A program made the translations under genes and the position numbers. The notes below the pieces were generated by a model. The model was not told the origin of the DNA and did no database searches. It saw nothing but the letters and a program-made list of their open reading frames with translations. A stretch of 64,000 nt of DNA from Longimicrobiales bacterium (GTDB taxonomy: Bacteria; Gemmatimonadota; Gemmatimonadetes; Longimicrobiales; Gaopeijiaceae): contig OZ241892.1 of the NCBI GenBank assembly GCA_965203485.1, positions 1,568,001 through 1,632,000 of the forward strand. The letters are read 5' to 3'. The stretch's first letter is position 1; each line of letters starts with the position of its first letter. This document shows positions 24,642-37,347 of this stretch, piece by piece.

Positions 24642-25268
24642 CTACCGGGGTCGCGACGAGGGGTCAACTGGCGGCCGGAGGTCCTCGCGGTGGTCTTCGC
24701 GCCGGGCTTCGAGGCGACGCGCGAGAGCCGACGCGGCGAGCAGGTCGTCGACCACGCGCGTGGTCGCGGGAACGCGGGACTCCATCTCCCTTCCGTACCC
24801 GGTGCGCACGAGGATGCCGGTGCCTCCCGTCTCCAGGGCCGGCAGCACGTCCGTCACGTTGTCGCCCACGTAGTAGGAGCGGCCGAGGTCGAGGCCGAGT
24901 TCGGCGGCCGCGGCGCGGTGCATCGCCGTGCTCGGCTTTCGGCACGTGGTCTCGGGATCGCCGGCGGGGGTGTCGGGGCAGAAGTGCGTGGCGTCCAGCG
25001 CAACGCCCTCTGCCGCGAGTTGCCGCTCGACCTCCGCGGCGACGCGGCGGTAGTCGGACAGTGCGTAGAGACCGCGACCGATGCCCGACTGGTTCGTGAC
25101 CACGACGAGCGCCAAGCCCAGGTCCCTTAAGCGCCGCAGGGCTTCCGCGGCGTTGGGCAACAGCGCAACTCCGGCGGGATCGGACAAGTAGTGGCGCTCC
25201 TCGACGATGGTGCCGTCGCGGTCCAGGAAGGCGGCGGGGCGCGGGACCGCGGGCGGCCGGGCTAGCAC
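24642..25268 (-). CDS. HAD-IIIA hydrolase, D,D-heptose 1,7-bisphosphate phosphatase (GmhB-like)
   Basis: FLDRDGTI, VVTNQSGIGRG, CRKPS and YVGD motifs. Start approximate. Confidence 0.85.
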   Translation of the reverse strand: MLARPPAVPRPAAFLDRDGTIVEERHYLSDPAGVALLPNAAEALRRLRDLGLALVVVTNQSGIGRGLYALSDYRRVAAEVERQLAAEGVALDATHFCPDTPAGDPETTCRKPSTAMHRAAAAELGLDLGRSYYVGDNVTDVLPALETGGTGILVRTGYGREMESRVPATTRVVDDLLAASALARRLEARREDHREDLRPPVDPSSRPR

Positions 25269-26728
25269 GCGGGCGGCTCGTCGCGGCGGCGACCCTCGGT
25301 TGCGGCGCCTTCGGAAACGCGGCGGGCCACGGCTTCCAAGGCGGATGCGACGAGGGCGTCTTCGTCGGGGGCGACGGTGCGCAGGTCCACCAGCAAGCGG
25401 CCCTGGCGGCCCCGCGCGACGATCGGCGGATCGTGGGCGCGCAACTGGGCCAGCCACGCACCGAGCTGGGCCCCGGCGTCGATGCTCGCGAGGGCTGTCG
25501 GCAGGCGAACTCCGGGGCAGGCGCCGCCGCCGACCACGGAATCTCCGTCCACGACCTCCGCGTTCGCGAGAACGGAGCCGCGGGGCGCGCCGCCCAGCCG
25601 GTCCAGGAACTCGTGGGCGCGCCGCCGCAGGGTGTCCGCTGGAACTGCGATCATTCGCAGCGCCGGCACTTCACGGAGCGCCCGGGGCGGGTCTCGGTAG
25701 AGGGCCAGCGTAGCCTCCAGCCCCGCCAGCGCGATTTTGTCGCACCGAAGAGCGCGGCAAAGGGGATGCGTCTTGGCCGCTCCGACGGCCTCGCTCGTTC
25801 CCGCCAAGAGTCCGGCCTGCGGCCCCCCCAGCAACTTGTCGCCGGAGAAGACGACCAAGTGCGCGCCTGCGGCGACGCTGGCGGCGGGGGTGGGCTCGTC
25901 GGGAAGGCCAAGCGCGGCGGGGTCCGCAAGAAGACCGGTTCCCACGTCGTGAATCACGGGGATCCCCGCTTCCGCGCCGAGCGCGGCCAAGCGTTCGACG
26001 GGCGTCTCCTCCGCGAACCCGGAGAGACGGAAGTTGGACCGATGGACCTTGAGGATGGCCCCCACCTCTTCGCCGTCCAGCGCCCGCGCGTAGTCGTTCG
26101 GTCGCGTCCGGTTGGTGGTCCCGACCGGCAAGAGGCGGGAGCCCGCGGCTTCTACGACCTCGGGAACGCGGAAGCCGCCGCCGATCTCCACGAGCTCGCC
26201 GTGCGACACCACGACGCCGCGCCCGCCCGCGAGCGCCGCCAACGCCAGGGCGAGCGCGCCTGCCCCGTTGTTGACGGCAAGGCCGTCTTCGGCGCCGGTC
26301 AGTTCCGCGACGAGCCGGGAGCAGTGCACGTAGCGGGAGCCGCGCCCGCCGACGGCCAAGTCGAACTCGAGGTTGCCGTACCCGGCCGCGGCCGCCATGG
26401 CCCGGCGGGCGGCGGCGGCCAGGGGCGCGCGGCCCAGGTTCGTGTGCAGGATCACGCCGGTGGCGTTGACGACGCGCCTCAAGCCGGGGGCGGCCGCGCG
26501 CCCGGCGTCGTGGCGAACGAGATCGCGGAGTTGGTCGTCGGTCGAAGGAACCGGCACGTCGCCGGCGCGCATGGCCGCAAGCACGGCTCGGACGCGCGCG
26601 GCGACCCATGGCCGACCGTAGCCGGCGGCGAGCTCGGCGCACCACGGCTGGGCCAAGACGCGGTCCACGCCGGGAATCGACCGCCGCGGGTCGGACGTTG
26701 CGGCCGGAGGCGGGGACGCCGTGCTCAC
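25262..26728 (-). CDS. selA: L-seryl-tRNA(Sec) selenium transferase
   Basis: VVNATGVILHTNLGRAPL, GELVEIGGGFRVP, VGTTNRT, KVHRSNF and FSGDKLLGGPQAG (PLP Lys) motifs. Confidence 0.93.
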   Translation of the reverse strand: MSTASPPPAATSDPRRSIPGVDRVLAQPWCAELAAGYGRPWVAARVRAVLAAMRAGDVPVPSTDDQLRDLVRHDAGRAAAPGLRRVVNATGVILHTNLGRAPLAAAARRAMAAAAGYGNLEFDLAVGGRGSRYVHCSRLVAELTGAEDGLAVNNGAGALALALAALAGGRGVVVSHGELVEIGGGFRVPEVVEAAGSRLLPVGTTNRTRPNDYARALDGEEVGAILKVHRSNFRLSGFAEETPVERLAALGAEAGIPVIHDVGTGLLADPAALGLPDEPTPAASVAAGAHLVVFSGDKLLGGPQAGLLAGTSEAVGAAKTHPLCRALRCDKIALAGLEATLALYRDPPRALREVPALRMIAVPADTLRRRAHEFLDRLGGAPRGSVLANAEVVDGDSVVGGGACPGVRLPTALASIDAGAQLGAWLAQLRAHDPPIVARGRQGRLLVDLRTVAPDEDALVASALEAVARRVSEGAATEGRRRDEPPAC

Positions 26729-32029: not shown

Positions 32030-32689
32030 CTAGGCTCCAACGCGCGGCGACACGCTCGGGCCGCCCAGCGGCAAGTCCGCCTCCACCGGGTTGGTCGCCG
32101 ACGAGCCGCACGACAAGACGACGGCGACGGTGTCGCCGGGGGCCAGAGGCCCGACGCCGGCGGGCGTTCCGGTGGCCACGAGGTCGCCGGGCTCCAGGGT
32201 CGTGAAGCGGGAGATGTAGCTGACCAAGCCGCGCAGGGAGAAGACGAGATCGGAGGCATGTCCGCGTTGCCGTTCCCGGCCGTTGACCCGCGTGGCGACG
32301 GACAGGTCTTCCGGGTCGACTTCGCGGGCGTCCACGGGATCGCCCACCGGGCAGAACGTGTCGAAGCCCTTGGCGCGCGACCACTGGTCGTCCGCGCGCT
32401 GCAGGTCGCGGGCCGTGACGTCGTTGAGCGCCAGCACGCCGCTCACGTGCTCCCACGCGCTCGCTTCCGGCACGCGGCGGGCGCGTTTGCCGACCAGCAA
32501 CCCGATCTCGCCTTCGAAGTCCACGCGCCCGGCGTCGGGCGGAACGCGGATCGGGGCGCCGCTGGGGATCAGGGCCGACGGCGGCTTGAGGAAGAGGAGC
32601 GGCTCCGACGGCGCCTCGTGGCCCAGCTCGGCCGCGTGGGGAGCGAAGTTTCGGCCCACGCAGACGATCTTGCCGGGCCGGTCGATCAA
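32030..32689 (-). CDS. Fumarylacetoacetate hydrolase family protein
   Basis: KIVCVGRNF, PLLFLKP, DFEGE, NDVTARDLQ, AKGFDTFCP and TGTPAGVG motifs. Start uncertain. Confidence 0.9.
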   Translation of the reverse strand: MIDRPGKIVCVGRNFAPHAAELGHEAPSEPLLFLKPPSALIPSGAPIRVPPDAGRVDFEGEIGLLVGKRARRVPEASAWEHVSGVLALNDVTARDLQRADDQWSRAKGFDTFCPVGDPVDAREVDPEDLSVATRVNGRERQRGHASDLVFSLRGLVSYISRFTTLEPGDLVATGTPAGVGPLAPGDTVAVVLSCGSSATNPVEADLPLGGPSVSPRVGA

Positions 32690-32763
32690 GCGGATCGCGC
32701 GGGCGGGCGGAGACCGGGCGAGACGCCGAGGCCGGTAGAGATGCCGGGCGCGCGGAGGCCAAG

Positions 32764-32961
32764 TCAGTCGGCCGCCCGCGAATGCACGGCCGTGCCGATC
32801 AGGGCCGCCAGGGCCGCGATCAGCAAAAGGCTGGCGATCACCGTCCACCAGAACCCCACGTCCGAGCGCCCGGCGTCCCATCCCGCGAGCGACGTCCGGG
32901 CCGCGCCCATGGCGAGCGCAAGCAAACCGAGACCGGCGAGAGCTCCTAGGGCCTTCTTCAT
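32764..32961 (-). CDS. Small two-TM membrane protein (65 aa)
   Basis: MKKALGALAGLGLLALAM and GFWWTVIASLLLIAALAALIG hydrophobic helices. Confidence 0.65.
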   Translation of the reverse strand: MKKALGALAGLGLLALAMGAARTSLAGWDAGRSDVGFWWTVIASLLLIAALAALIGTAVHSRAAD

Positions 32962-33082: not shown

Positions 33083-33262
33083 TCAGAACGGCAGATCGTC
33101 GGCGGGCGCCGAGGGAACCGGCGACCGGCCGGGCACAAGCACCTTCTTGCGGCCCACGTCGTCAAAGTCCACGGTGAGCTTGAAACCCGTGCCCGATCTC
33201 TCGCGCTCGACGATCGTGCCATGTCCAAAGACGTGGTGGTCGAAGGGGCCGCCCGGCGCGTG
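33083..33262 (-). other. In-frame continuation of dinG beyond TAG: PcrA/UvrD-type C-terminal Tudor domain plus DDLPF tail
   Basis: Same frame as dinG: HAPGGPFDHHVFGHGTIVERERSGTGFKLTVDFDDVGRKKVLVPGRSPVPSAPADDLPF, then TGA. No start codon precedes the domain after the TAG. Confidence 0.8.
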
Positions 33263-36055
33263 CTACGCCCGCACGGGCTTCGGCGACCGCCGAGGAGGCC
33301 GGTCGCCCTCTTTCCCGGGCGAGGCGGGCAGTGCGCGACCTCGCGATTCGCGGCTGACCGGGCCCCTGGGGCCGCCCACGGCCGCGCGCGGAGGGCCCGC
33401 GGCGTAGAAATCCCGCAGTGGCGCATCGAGCGCTGACCATTCGCGGTACTCCACCGGCATCGGCGGCAGCGCGGCCAGAATTGCGCGCCCGTAGGGCTTC
33501 GTCCACACCCGGTCGTCGAGCAACACGACGGCGCCCCGGTCGCTGCGCGCGCGGATCAGCCGACCCACGCCCTGCTTGAGGCTCAGGCCCGCCACCGGAA
33601 CGGTATAGCCGAAGAAGCCGTTTTCACCCCGCGCCTCGATCTTCGCCTTTCGCGCGGCCGCCACCGGCTCGCCGGGGACCGGGAACGGCAACTTGTGGAT
33701 CACGAGCGCGCGAAGCGATTGCCCGGGGATGTCAACGCCCTCCCAGAACGACTGCGTACCGAACAGGATCCCGTTGCCGGCGCGCTTGAATTTGCGGATC
33801 AGCTTGTAGCGCGACGACCCGCCCTGCACGAACACCTCCCAACGAGCACCGGGCAAGCTCTGGAATTTCTTCGCTGCGTCGCGAAGCGCGTCGTGCGACG
33901 TGAACAACGCCATGACGCCGCCGCCCGTGATCTCGGCCAGCTCGGACAGAATGCGCGCCACGTGCGGACCGGACATCGTCCCGTCGGCACCCTTGCACAC
34001 CTTGAGCACCGCCTGTTTGCGGTAGTCGAACGGCGACTTCACGACATCCTCGTGCACGCTCGTCCGATCGCCTTGCAGGCCCGTCCATTCTTTGAAGTGG
34101 TCGAAACTCTTGCCTAACGCCATCGTGGCCGACGTGAGCACAGCGGCGTCCACGCGGCCAAACAAATGTTTCCGAAGGAGCGGTCCCGCGCTCACCGGCG
34201 CCGACACCGCTTGCACGTCGTCCTTGCTCATCTCGAGCCAGCGCACCCAGTCCACATCTTCGGCCTCGCCGGGAAGGAGACAACGCTCGAGATCGGCGCC
34301 CGCCTCGACAAGCCGCTCGGCTGAGCTGCGAAGGTCGAGGACCCGACCCTTGAGGTCGTCGCCCAGGCTCTCTTCGTTCTCGTCGTCCACGCGTTCGCAG
34401 ATACCGCTCAGCTCCTTGGATACGGCGCCCAGGGCAATCCGCAGGTTGTCCAGGGCCGTGCACATCCGGATGTCGTCGGCCGGCTCCTGGCCCCGGCCGA
34501 TAGGCAGGCGAACCCGGTCTTGCCGAGCGGCTGGTTGACGACGGGCGCGTTCCCCGTTGGCGCGCCTCACGGTCCAAGCCCTGAGCGCGTCGAAGAACTC
34601 GTCGGTCCGTTCTCGGGCAAGCTCCACGGCCTCAACGGCGTTCTCCGCCACGCGCTGCCGCAACTCGGCGTCCAGAACCCCGCCCTGCTTCTCGAAAGCC
34701 TTCGCAACCGCAACCAGCAAGCCCATGGGCCGACGCTTGTCGTGCAACCGGGACAGGAGCGCGAGCACGCCATGGCGCTTGACCTTGGTCTTGAAAGCCT
34801 CAGTGGCGGCCTCGTCGAGGCGGTGCGCCTCGTCGAAGATCACCCTCCGGTAGCGGGGCAACACGACGGCGTCGTCGAAATTGTCATGCTCTATGCGGAT
34901 GTTCAGATCCGCGAAGAAGAGGGCATGGTTGACGACCACCACGTCCGCGTCGGCTACGCCCCTGCGGGCTCGAAAGTAGAAGCACTCCTGGTAGTGCGGA
35001 CACTTGTCGCGCAAGCAGGCGTCCGTATCGCTCTTGACTTCGTTCCAGACTTCCTCGGCGGGCTTCACGGGCAGATCGCTCTTGGATCCGTCCCGAGTCT
35101 TCTCGAGCCACTTCATGATCTCGTCGATATCGGTGCCCTTCCCGTCCGCAAAGAGGGCGCCCGCCGACTTGGCCGCCAAGCGGGCGCGCCGGATCGACGC
35201 GTAGTTGCCCCGGCCCTTGAAGAGGGCCCACTTGAGCGGCTCGCCGAGGACGTCCTGGGCGAGCGGAAGATCCTTGAAGACCAGTTGCTGTTGCAGGTTG
35301 ATGGTGTTCGTGGACACGATCGTCCGTTCGCGGTTCCGGAGCGCCCAGCTCGCGGCGGGCGTCAGGTAGGCAAGCGACTTGCCCGTTCCGGTGCCGGCCT
35401 CGACCAGGCCGACGCCGCCTTCGTTGAAGCGGCGGGCCACCAACCGCAACATCTCCCGTTGCCCTCTCCGATCCTCGTATTCCGGCTCGGCGGCGAAGGC
35501 GCCGCCCGGCGCCAGCAAGGCGGCCAGGGCGTCCTCGTCAAGCAGCCGGGGTCCCTCGCGGCCCCCTTTAGAGAGCCGCTTCGGCCAGGGCTCGCCGAAG
35601 TCCAGCGCGCCGCGAAGCCCTTCCAGCACTTTCTTGTTGCGATCCACGAGCGTCCGCAGCTGGGCCGCCACGTCGCGAAGGTCGCTGACATCGGCGGCTC
35701 GGCCGACGGCCGCCGCCAGCCTCTCGAAGTCCTCCAGCGGGATCTGGTCCTCGGACCACAGCGCCTTGAGCCTCTCGGTCAGCGCTTCCCGCGCGTCTTC
35801 GAGCGAAGGGCCGCCGGCGCGTTCGGAAGCAGCGCGGATACTCTCCACGACCCCCACCACCTCCGCGATCTTGGCCACGCGGGCGCGCAACTCGGCCGCG
35901 ACCGCCAGCAGATCGTTCATGTTCGCCGCCGCCCCGGCCGCCTTCGCCAGCTCGCCGTGCTCCCGTTCCGTCAGCTGGTCCGCCGCCCAGGCGTCGCCGA
36001 GCGCCTGCACCACCCGATCTCTCGCCTGCTCCAGAGACGCCGGCGCGGCGCTCAC
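33263..36055 (-). CDS. DinG/YoaA-family ATP-dependent helicase with two N-terminal DUF1707-like repeats
   Basis: Q-motif (YEDRRGQ), EAGTGTGKSLAY, FDEAH, LTSAT, LFTS, SFWEGVDIPG, KLPFP and QGVGRLIR motifs; Fe-S region C-x4-C-x5-C. Confidence 0.9.
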   Translation of the reverse strand: MSAAPASLEQARDRVVQALGDAWAADQLTEREHGELAKAAGAAANMNDLLAVAAELRARVAKIAEVVGVVESIRAASERAGGPSLEDAREALTERLKALWSEDQIPLEDFERLAAAVGRAADVSDLRDVAAQLRTLVDRNKKVLEGLRGALDFGEPWPKRLSKGGREGPRLLDEDALAALLAPGGAFAAEPEYEDRRGQREMLRLVARRFNEGGVGLVEAGTGTGKSLAYLTPAASWALRNRERTIVSTNTINLQQQLVFKDLPLAQDVLGEPLKWALFKGRGNYASIRRARLAAKSAGALFADGKGTDIDEIMKWLEKTRDGSKSDLPVKPAEEVWNEVKSDTDACLRDKCPHYQECFYFRARRGVADADVVVVNHALFFADLNIRIEHDNFDDAVVLPRYRRVIFDEAHRLDEAATEAFKTKVKRHGVLALLSRLHDKRRPMGLLVAVAKAFEKQGGVLDAELRQRVAENAVEAVELARERTDEFFDALRAWTVRRANGERARRQPAARQDRVRLPIGRGQEPADDIRMCTALDNLRIALGAVSKELSGICERVDDENEESLGDDLKGRVLDLRSSAERLVEAGADLERCLLPGEAEDVDWVRWLEMSKDDVQAVSAPVSAGPLLRKHLFGRVDAAVLTSATMALGKSFDHFKEWTGLQGDRTSVHEDVVKSPFDYRKQAVLKVCKGADGTMSGPHVARILSELAEITGGGVMALFTSHDALRDAAKKFQSLPGARWEVFVQGGSSRYKLIRKFKRAGNGILFGTQSFWEGVDIPGQSLRALVIHKLPFPVPGEPVAAARKAKIEARGENGFFGYTVPVAGLSLKQGVGRLIRARSDRGAVVLLDDRVWTKPYGRAILAALPPMPVEYREWSALDAPLRDFYAAGPPRAAVGGPRGPVSRESRGRALPASPGKEGDRPPRRSPKPVRA

Positions 36056-37347
36056 GTCTTCAGCTTCTTCTTCTTTGCCGCCGGGAAGAGCACGTTGTTC
36101 AAGATGAGCCGGTAGCCGGGCGAGTTGGGATGCAGGTCGAGGTCGGTGGGCGCGTCGCCGATCTGGTGCTCGGGGTCCTCCGGGTCGTGGCCTCCGTAGT
36201 AGGTCCAGGTGCCCTTTCCGGCGGATCCATGGACGTACTTGGCCGAGCCGCCTTCCTTGGCGAGCTGCACGACGCCGGGCTTGAGGCGGTCGATCTCGAA
36301 CGACGTCGTCAGGCCGTAGAAGTCCGGCAGAACGGACTCGTGATTCTGCGTGAGCATCGTGGGGACCGGATCGAACTTGGCCGAGAATTCAAATAAGGTG
36401 AAGGTGCCTAACTGCTTGCGCCACGGGGTGTTGACTTGATGTCCGTCTATGTCCGAGAAGGCGTTCACCGAGGGCGACGTCTGAATCCGGGCGTCTTGAA
36501 AGGCCATAGCGGCGCGCCAGTCCATGCGGTCGGTAGCGGCGGGGTCGGGCGGCGTCCCGTCCGAGTACGCCGCCGCGATGTCCACGCCGTCCGCGGCCAG
36601 CGCCAGCTCCAACGTCTCCGGGGCCGAGCACATCGCGAACAGGAATCCGCCGCCCTCGACGTACTCCTTGATCCGCCGGCTGACCGCCTTCTTGAGCGCC
36701 GGCACGTCCGCGAATTCCAGCGCGCGCGCCTCCTCTTCGTTGCGCGCCACCTCTTCCTCGAGCCATGGCGTGCCGGCGTACGTGATGTAGAACTTGGAGT
36801 ACTGGCCGGTGAAGTCCTCGTGATGGAGGTGGAGCCACTCGTAGCGGCTCATGTCGCCGCCGAGAACGTCCCCGTCCCACACCTTCTCGTAGGGAATCTC
36901 GGCGTACTCGAGCGCCATGGTGACGGCGTCGTCCCACGGCGCGCTGTTCGGCGGCGTGTAGATCGCGATCCTGGTGGCCTTCTCCAGGACGATGGCGTCC
37001 ATGTTGGATTCGGCGACGACGCCCCGAATGCGCGCCTCGTCCGCCGGGCCGACGCGGGTCGTCGAAACGCCCATGAGCGCCGCGCGGCGATGCACGGCCT
37101 CCGTGTCCGGCAACAGAAACGAGCCGCCCCGGTAGTTGAGGAGCCACTCCGCCGTGCTGCCCGCGCGCAGAACGGCGTAGGCCAAGCCGTACGCCTTGAG
37201 ATGGTTTGCTTGGGCGCGGTCCATTGGCACAAGGACGGACTGGCCCGCCGCCGAGCGGGCGGACGGAGCCGCCAGCAGGCACGCGGCCAACGCGACGGCC
37301 CGAACGGGGACTGGGAGCGCGGCGCGGCGCGGCGCCGGACGGCTCAT
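36052..37347 (-). CDS. Conserved secreted hypothetical protein (family often labelled 'asparagine synthetase B'; class I GATase-like)
   Basis: Signal peptide, then LVPMD..QANHLKAYG, WLLNYRGGSF, PWDDAVT, WLHLHHEDFTGQY, FLFAMCSA, GGHDPED and RLILNNVLFPAA motifs. Confidence 0.75.
   Translation of the reverse strand: MSRPAPRRAALPVPVRAVALAACLLAAPSARSAAGQSVLVPMDRAQANHLKAYGLAYAVLRAGSTAEWLLNYRGGSFLLPDTEAVHRRAALMGVSTTRVGPADEARIRGVVAESNMDAIVLEKATRIAIYTPPNSAPWDDAVTMALEYAEIPYEKVWDGDVLGGDMSRYEWLHLHHEDFTGQYSKFYITYAGTPWLEEEVARNEEEARALEFADVPALKKAVSRRIKEYVEGGGFLFAMCSAPETLELALAADGVDIAAAYSDGTPPDPAATDRMDWRAAMAFQDARIQTSPSVNAFSDIDGHQVNTPWRKQLGTFTLFEFSAKFDPVPTMLTQNHESVLPDFYGLTTSFEIDRLKPGVVQLAKEGGSAKYVHGSAGKGTWTYYGGHDPEDPEHQIGDAPTDLDLHPNSPGYRLILNNVLFPAAKKKKLKT

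Follow-up and report, generated by a model that had tools for sequence, protein, structure and literature searches.

A DinG-family helicase gene in a Longimicrobiales genome with an in-frame TAG in front of a PcrA/UvrD-type Tudor domain

The window analysed here, a stretch of 64,000 nucleotides (nt) of contig OZ241892.1 (positions 1,568,001 to 1,632,000) from a Longimicrobiales bacterium, contains on its minus strand a dinG-family gene for a superfamily 2 (SF2) helicase of the RadC-like/YoaA-type lineage (33263..36055; Pfam Helicase_C_2 with E 3e-42, DEAD and DEAD_2). The open reading frame (ORF) of 930 codons runs from a GTG at 36055 to 33266 and is closed under genetic code 11 by a TAG at 33265-33263, which gives a product of 930 amino acids (aa). 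A further 59 codons remain open in the same frame up to a TGA at 33085-33083, and their residues are exactly those quoted in a first-pass annotation of the same DNA. These 59 codons encode a Tudor domain of the PcrA/UvrD type and the end DDLPF. Comparison with relatives identifies the gene as the truncated allele of a DinG variant which is restricted to one genus and is new as an arrangement. The TAG is most probably a nonsense mutation that arose recently, became fixed and hit an add-on that is dispensable.

The genome under study (G000) consists of one contig, is 95% complete and contained 2390 genes called by script. It is one of three genomes of its Longimicrobiales genus, the other two being G001 and G002. 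The Tudor domain occupies the 43 codons directly behind the TAG (33134..33262) and is followed by a Pro-rich tail ending in DDLPF (33086..33133). The 59 residues alone matched Pfam family PF21196 (PcrA_UvrD_tudor) with an E value of 4.3e-6 and 26.9 bits against a cut-off of 23.9. The relatives P0003 and P0006 scored 29.4 and 31.5 bits, while P0013 reached 15.2 bits and stayed under the cut-off. A structural model of the extension, built on a 6-row alignment that included the host UvrD Tudor, had four strands and a mean predicted local distance difference test (pLDDT) score of 83.7. The top seven rows of a Foldseek search with the Tudor model were all UvrD/PcrA Tudors, with a probability of 1.00 and E values of 0.006-0.07 (none below 0.001), and the model superposed on UvrD/PcrA Tudors with a root mean square deviation of 1.4-1.7 Å over 42-44 residues. 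By sequence alone, the extension matched PDB entries weakly, the best being the Tudor of E. coli UvrD with E 0.07. The Tudor assignment made from the bare sequence in the first-pass annotation was thus borne out by the Pfam score, the model and the Foldseek rows.

PcrA is described as using H681, W684, K712 and L714 of its Tudor domain for RNA polymerase binding (PMC5397179). With the PcrA numbering inferred from the 1PJR match coordinates and that paper, the equivalent residues were H, F, K and L in all six intact fusion rows, and H, F, K and V in this genome. A Val at the L714 equivalent was also present in 1 of 31 UvrD rows. Residues 1 and 7 of the Tudor domain were Y/F and V/I in all 37 other Tudor rows, namely the 31 UvrD rows (picked as best hits, one of them a duplicate) and the six fusions; they are H and F here.

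In a search of 61 genomes, G001 matched positions 1-990 of the read-through protein without any stop. It has CCG (Pro) at the TAG position and a TGA at the same end as here. The dinG gene of G002 ends earlier, without the Tudor domain. Protein searches yielded ten genus-type proteins in six clusters at 90% identity, and the Tudor domain lay in one open frame in nine of the ten proteins (five of the six clusters). The residue at the TAG site in these nine was Pro in six, Leu in two and Ala in one. None of the six non-self clusters stopped at the TAG site in a search with the N-terminal 200 aa, which is blind to the tail. Since G001 and nine of the ten genus-type proteins carry a sense residue at this site, the DinG-linker-Tudor fusion suspected in the first-pass annotation is real.

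The fusion was confined to one Longimicrobiales genus in all searches performed. The extension was absent from all 27 dinG loci outside the genus. Among 201 genomes of the order a Tudor match was present in 194, one apiece except for this genome and G140, and the second match in G140 was rejected as a near-duplicate of its uvrD end at a contig end. Both genome tallies, of 61 and of 201, include the unpublished genomes G037, G056, G115 and G173, on which none of the statements at sequence level depends. Only P0003 clearly scored for the Tudor domain among the best 150 of 4475 hits from 1.84 billion representatives. A GTDB scan returned G001 and one short unrelated match, with no other fusion. 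A metagenome scan with a two-row C-terminal alignment gave one locus from 457 candidate stretches, with 30% identity, and this was not a DinG fusion as judged by its frames. A search for longer proteins with the 59 aa alone, a weak search that also missed the known fusions, gave no scoring protein among 65 candidates. P0055, a metagenome fragment of 252 aa in which a DinG C-terminal domain is followed by a different Tudor/DUF3553-like tail, is possibly an independent DinG-Tudor fusion; it is a lead only, a single sequence with weak profile support (hhalign probability 8.5, Atlas features 0.88-0.90).

The tree of the helicase core placed G002 at the base, followed by P0013 and then by the gene under study among the Tudor-bearing copies. 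P0012, the tenth genus-type protein, was sister to P0006/P0011; it carries a transmembrane segment and a metallo-beta-lactamase-fold domain in place of the Tudor domain. This order indicates a single gain of the Tudor domain, followed by replacement in P0012 and truncation here; by the tree, P0012 represents a second lineage that lost the add-on. A side observation concerns P0012 and L004:455-1381. The extra domain of P0012 has a ComEC-like metallo-beta-lactamase fold, and in G001 a gene of this kind lies directly 3' of dinG, joined to the beginning of the small membrane gene. Apart from itself, the extension most resembled at the DNA level the 3' end of uvrD in the same genome (74% over 88 nt), and the fused Tudors share a GRKKL motif with the UvrD proteins of the order. 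The extension therefore likely arose from uvrD within the lineage.

A hairpin motif is reported as the binding site of the PcrA Tudor domain; it lies in the SI1 insert of the beta subunit of RNA polymerase and occurs in UvrB as well (PMC8318588). The motif DPETGEV is present in RpoB of this genome, and IVDPETGEVLL in G002 equals the published pattern. A relaxed form of the hairpin motif had its best match among the 2390 called genes in rpoB. The intact Tudor domain thus probably binds RNA polymerase, with a point against it in RpoB of this genome and of G001, which is one residue off the strict published motif (Ala at position 1). That the intact domain targets another hairpin-bearing partner, or that the add-on is a near-neutral passenger, is unlikely but deserves some weight. 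The PcrA Tudor binds UvrB and other proteins as well (PMC8318588), the add-on is lacking in G002 and in 27 of 27 non-genus loci and was lost in P0012 and here, and the DinG C-terminus was joined to a metallo-beta-lactamase-fold domain in P0012. Against this stand the rpoB match and the conservation of the Tudor residues among proteins with only 65-95% identity to P0003, in which the linker varies freely.

The DDLPF tail was compared with that of SSB, the protein that binds single-stranded DNA. As proposed in the first-pass annotation, the tail is SSB-like, and DDLPF also forms the last five residues of the main SSB of the host. Only one of the 2390 called genes, ssb, ends in [DE][DE][LIVM]PF, and a tail of this type is therefore not a common ending. 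Among nine intact fusion proteins, the tail was DDLPF in five, DDPPF in one, GDLPS in two and absent in one. The acidic residues before LPF number two in the dinG tail, compared with EPEDD in the host SSB. That the tail of the intact fusion has a function is possible but somewhat doubtful, because it varies among the intact proteins, with DDLPF in just five of nine. Preferred codons account for the similarity in DNA between the tails of dinG and ssb, which was left out of the evidence. A second, short SSB paralogue without an acidic tail is present in each of the three genus genomes (L044, L045, L046).

Of the three explanations that the first-pass annotation offered for the TAG, a very recent nonsense mutation fitted best. 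The ratio of nonsynonymous to synonymous substitution rates (dN/dS) against G001 was 0.48 for the extension, 0.46 for the helicase core and 0.98 for the linker. The value for the extension is near that of the core, which indicates that selection acted on the domain during most of the period after the lineage parted from that of G001. A rough likelihood calculation with an assumed branch length placed the stop in the last 5-30% of the lineage branch, with upper limits of 36% to 100% depending on the assumption. CAG, TCG and TTG are each one change away from TAG. For an estimate of how common such stops are, a 400-kb sample of G001 (12% of that genome; 271 called genes, 239 of them with orthologues) was compared with this genome. 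Of 22 stop rows, 20 were dropped: four from one antisense ORF, one that lay upstream of a real start, and 15 close to a C-terminus where the identity downstream was poor. Stops inside genes with conserved sequence on both sides were left in dinG and in one other gene, and both were TAG. The second lies at about codon 44 of a lipoprotein-like gene (G000:C1:1936576-1937721). A near-identical paralogue in the same genome (C1:1660713-1661858) has CAG there; the two paralogues differ in their C-terminal halves. Recent amber mutations would thus occur in about 1 in 240 genes.

Several observations weigh against a recently silenced remnant. The stranded segment has not measurably decayed, as seen from the dN/dS values of extension and core. 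Private changes at otherwise invariant sites were found at 4 of 25 Tudor and 38 of 427 core positions (p 0.28). Both DDLPF and the TGA are kept behind the stop, and the +4 base after the TAG is C. The lack of decay fits a recent stop and fits use by readthrough equally well.

The alternative of a leaky, selected TAG would have near-cognate tRNAs read through it in part, yielding a major short helicase and a minor Tudor isoform tethered to RNA polymerase. The conservation of the downstream frame with its end, the position of the stop exactly at the boundary of linker and domain and the still confident fold prediction (pLDDT 84) would agree with this, as would the +4 base, since +4U is reported to lower readthrough (PMC5289835). 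TAG-C is, however, the commonest TAG context in the genome (314 of 758), and no signal of RNA structure was found after the TAG (z -0.46; 66 of 200 shuffles folded as well). Two class-invariant Tudor positions carry private changes, and the equivalent of PcrA L714 has changed from L to V. The stop is also not conserved among relatives: it occurs in none of the six non-self clusters, and a sense residue is found in all nine Tudor-bearing relatives, as well as CCG in G001. The first-pass annotation had named a sense codon in relatives as evidence against readthrough and for the fusion; conserved readthrough is accordingly refuted and the fusion confirmed. The readthrough first proposed for this site gained no support. 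A leaky, selected stop is therefore improbable. Slightly less probable still is a newly evolved leaky switch, with free DinG as the main product and a minor long isoform, which would bind RNA polymerase through its Tudor domain and attract repair proteins that are SSB clients through its own DDLPF end. If true, one gene would supply both a fork-associated and a transcription-tethered R-loop helicase.

The TAG itself is real. Logan contigs of all four runs covered the site, and the main contig showed neither a different letter nor a gap there, at depths of 144, 23, 420 and 61. The 18 variant rows lie outside the contig rows listed, contigs drop rare alleles, and in run X3 the bin with the TAG had an excess depth of about 1.5. 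The TAG codon differs from the G001 codon at two positions and the neighbouring codon at one. A sequencing or assembly error, as considered in the first-pass annotation, is contradicted by the separately assembled contigs of up to two samples, which are identical across the site, and by the three changed positions in the two codons; it is very improbable. A reservation is that all runs come from one study with at most two samples, perhaps the source of this genome, and that contigs hide rare alleles. The apparent frameshifts against G001 in gcvP and in a lytic transglycosylase gene (G000:C1:2751538 and C1:2745045) may be errors.

Separate translation of the 59 codons as a mini-protein is just as improbable. 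Stand-alone Tudor-like proteins of 64-79 aa do occur as Atlas clusters (a lead only), comparable to stand-alone Tudor/DUF3553 proteins, but here the TAG abuts the first Tudor residue. As stated in the first-pass annotation, no ATG or GTG lies between the TAG and the start of the domain. The first in-frame ATG, GTG or TTG follows 30 codons past the TAG, inside the domain, where three of the four strands have already begun. The stretch from TAG to TGA gave no hit in a promoter and terminator scan.

TAG is an ordinary stop codon in this organism. A search for an amber-suppressor tRNA and for pyrrolysine genes was run. No tRNA with a CUA anticodon was present among the 52 called, nor at a relaxed threshold. 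PylS reached 24.8 bits against a cut-off of 178 and no PylB exceeded its cut-off in this 95% complete genome; PylC and PylD were not searched for. The gene for release factor 1 (RF1), prfA, is intact and over its cut-off. TAG ends 758 of the 2390 called genes, ssb and tuf among them, and ssb ends in DDLPF-TAG in all three genus genomes. Of the TAG ends in G001 that aligned to the last residue, 30 of 42 were also TAG here. When the stops of the whole genome were scanned for coding-like sequence behind them, ten genes were flagged, among them a probable selenocysteine TGA that served as positive control. The scan flagged 8 of 758 TAG ends and 2 of 1525 TGA ends (p 0.003), an excess that speaks against an ordinary TAG. 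On reading, the other seven TAG cases were five next genes in the same frame, one unrelated gene fragment and one probable antisense artefact, and dinG alone was an interrupted gene. Recoding of TAG by pyrrolysine, an amber suppressor or a code change, raised in the first-pass annotation and favoured by the finding that both in-gene stops against G001 orthologues are TAG, is scarcely credible given the missing CUA tRNA, PylS and PylB, the intact prfA and the 758 genes ending in TAG.

Three side observations were made. The pgk gene, one of the five next genes in the same frame, lies behind the gene gap and probably starts with CTG where G001 has TTG (G000:C1:1138578-1138650). Selenocysteine use is likely: labels assigned from motifs are a selA-like gene in the window (25262-26728), a tRNA-Sec at G000:C1:1755561-1755657 and an in-frame TGA at C1:2512049 in a peroxiredoxin-like motif. 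Seventeen tRNA genes are clustered within about 2.1 kb (G000:C1:2694800-2696932).

The part of dinG in front of the TAG encodes a helicase core (33401..35545) with motor domains, an iron-sulfur region and an arch. The SF2 motor domains contain the DEAH box and motif VI, and the best structural matches of the second motor domain were DinG proteins (Z 12.0-12.3). In the full-length model the core was poorly predicted (mean pLDDT 45); only the N-terminal helices, the second motor domain and the Tudor domain were read from it. The protein has three iron-sulfur cysteines and not four, and the first ligand position is Ser in all 30 loci read, three of the genus and 27 others. The core is followed by a disordered linker of 45 aa rich in Pro, Arg and Gly (33266..33400; pLDDT below 50), whose evolution is close to neutral by its dN/dS of 0.98.

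At the N-terminus, a JAB/RadC-like motif was present in all 27 non-genus loci of the order and absent in all three genus genomes, and no JAB Pfam match was found in the genus-type DinG proteins scanned. Its place is taken by one or two genus-specific helical repeats, here two tandem units of about 75 aa each (35546..36055; helices with pLDDT of about 78 in the model of a congener). A DUF1707 match in the repeats was weak and under the cut-off, and matches of the helices to helical bundles at Z of about 10-11 were uninformative.

All neighbouring genes are on the minus strand. The dinG start overlaps by 4 nt with the TGA of a conserved upstream gene that matches no Pfam family (36052..37299). 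Downstream are a gene for a small two-helix membrane protein (32764..32961), which follows dinG here and in many family members, and a conserved gene of the fumarylacetoacetate hydrolase family (32030..32704). The ancestral TGA (33083..33085) is at the same place as in G001.

The closest known proteins are the RadC-like (JAB-domain) DinG subgroup (Cheng 2025, PMC11981726), to which the gene is orthologous by sequence and gene neighbourhood, with the same helicase core and three-cysteine pattern. As judged from these features it descends from this subgroup, yet it no longer fits the subgroup definition, as the genus has exchanged JAB for helical repeats (three of three genomes) and a Tudor domain has been appended. 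The word Tudor is absent from the main text of that review; its supplements, where architectures are tabulated, could bear on this. The C-terminal Tudor of PcrA/UvrD (PF21196; PDB 5DMA, 6YI2, 7EGS, 9DQS) has the same barrel, the same layout of linker and then Tudor, and the same H, aromatic and K positions. In contrast to PcrA/UvrD, however, the domain sits on a 5'-3' SF2 and not on a 3'-5' superfamily 1 (SF1) helicase, is followed by a DDLPF tail and is cut off here by a stop. The host also retains a UvrD that bears a Tudor domain.

A precedent for a Tudor grafted on a repair enzyme with a proposed link to RNA polymerase is described for the mycobacterial polymerase DinX, which has a C-terminal PcrA-type Tudor/DUF3553 domain (Timinskas and Venclovas 2019, PMC6511836). 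DinX is reported there as a widespread subfamily of Y-family polymerases, whereas only a single genus yielded the DinG fusion. With the C-terminal tip of SSB (DDDIPF in E. coli) the fusion shares the position at the end of a disordered tail and, with the host SSB, the terminal DDLPF. The difference is that the fusion tail is carried by DinG, a helicase described in E. coli as binding the SSB tip (PMC11981726), and that DDLPF is varied or missing in four of nine intact fusions. In the literature searched, no report of a DinG-Tudor protein and none of a helicase with its own SSB-like tip was found.

The following sequence of events would account for these results. An ancestor in the genus would have appended a copy of the 3' end of uvrD/pcrA, comprising linker and Tudor, to DinG, and a sub-lineage would have closed the fusion with the DDLPF tail. 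The intact fusion would work like PcrA, with the Tudor gripping the hairpin by which the beta subunit of RNA polymerase interacts with helicases. DinG is described as unwinding R-loops in the 5'-3' direction and binding the SSB tip (PMC11981726), and E. coli DinG as easing replication-transcription conflicts by a route called indirect and unresolved (PMC6547429). The Tudor domain would keep the 5'-3' helicase close to transcription complexes, the place at which enzymes of the DinG type unwind R-loops, and the tethered DinG would complement the host UvrD of opposite polarity. The tail may recruit SSB partners, or fold back in cis on basic surfaces of the enzyme itself. In the genome under study a point mutation would then have created the TAG directly before the Tudor domain. 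RF1 would terminate there without useful readthrough, and the product would be a helicase of 930 aa with complete motor domains and a dangling linker, leaving the 59 codons as a recently silenced remnant.

The narrow distribution and the two losses suggest that the Tudor add-on gives a modest, optional advantage, which makes the fusion a useful natural variant and not a new system. A natural DinG with a Tudor domain would be a ready-made test of whether tethering to RNA polymerase alters R-loop removal, and the genus supplies matched DinG forms with the Tudor domain, without it, and with it cut off.

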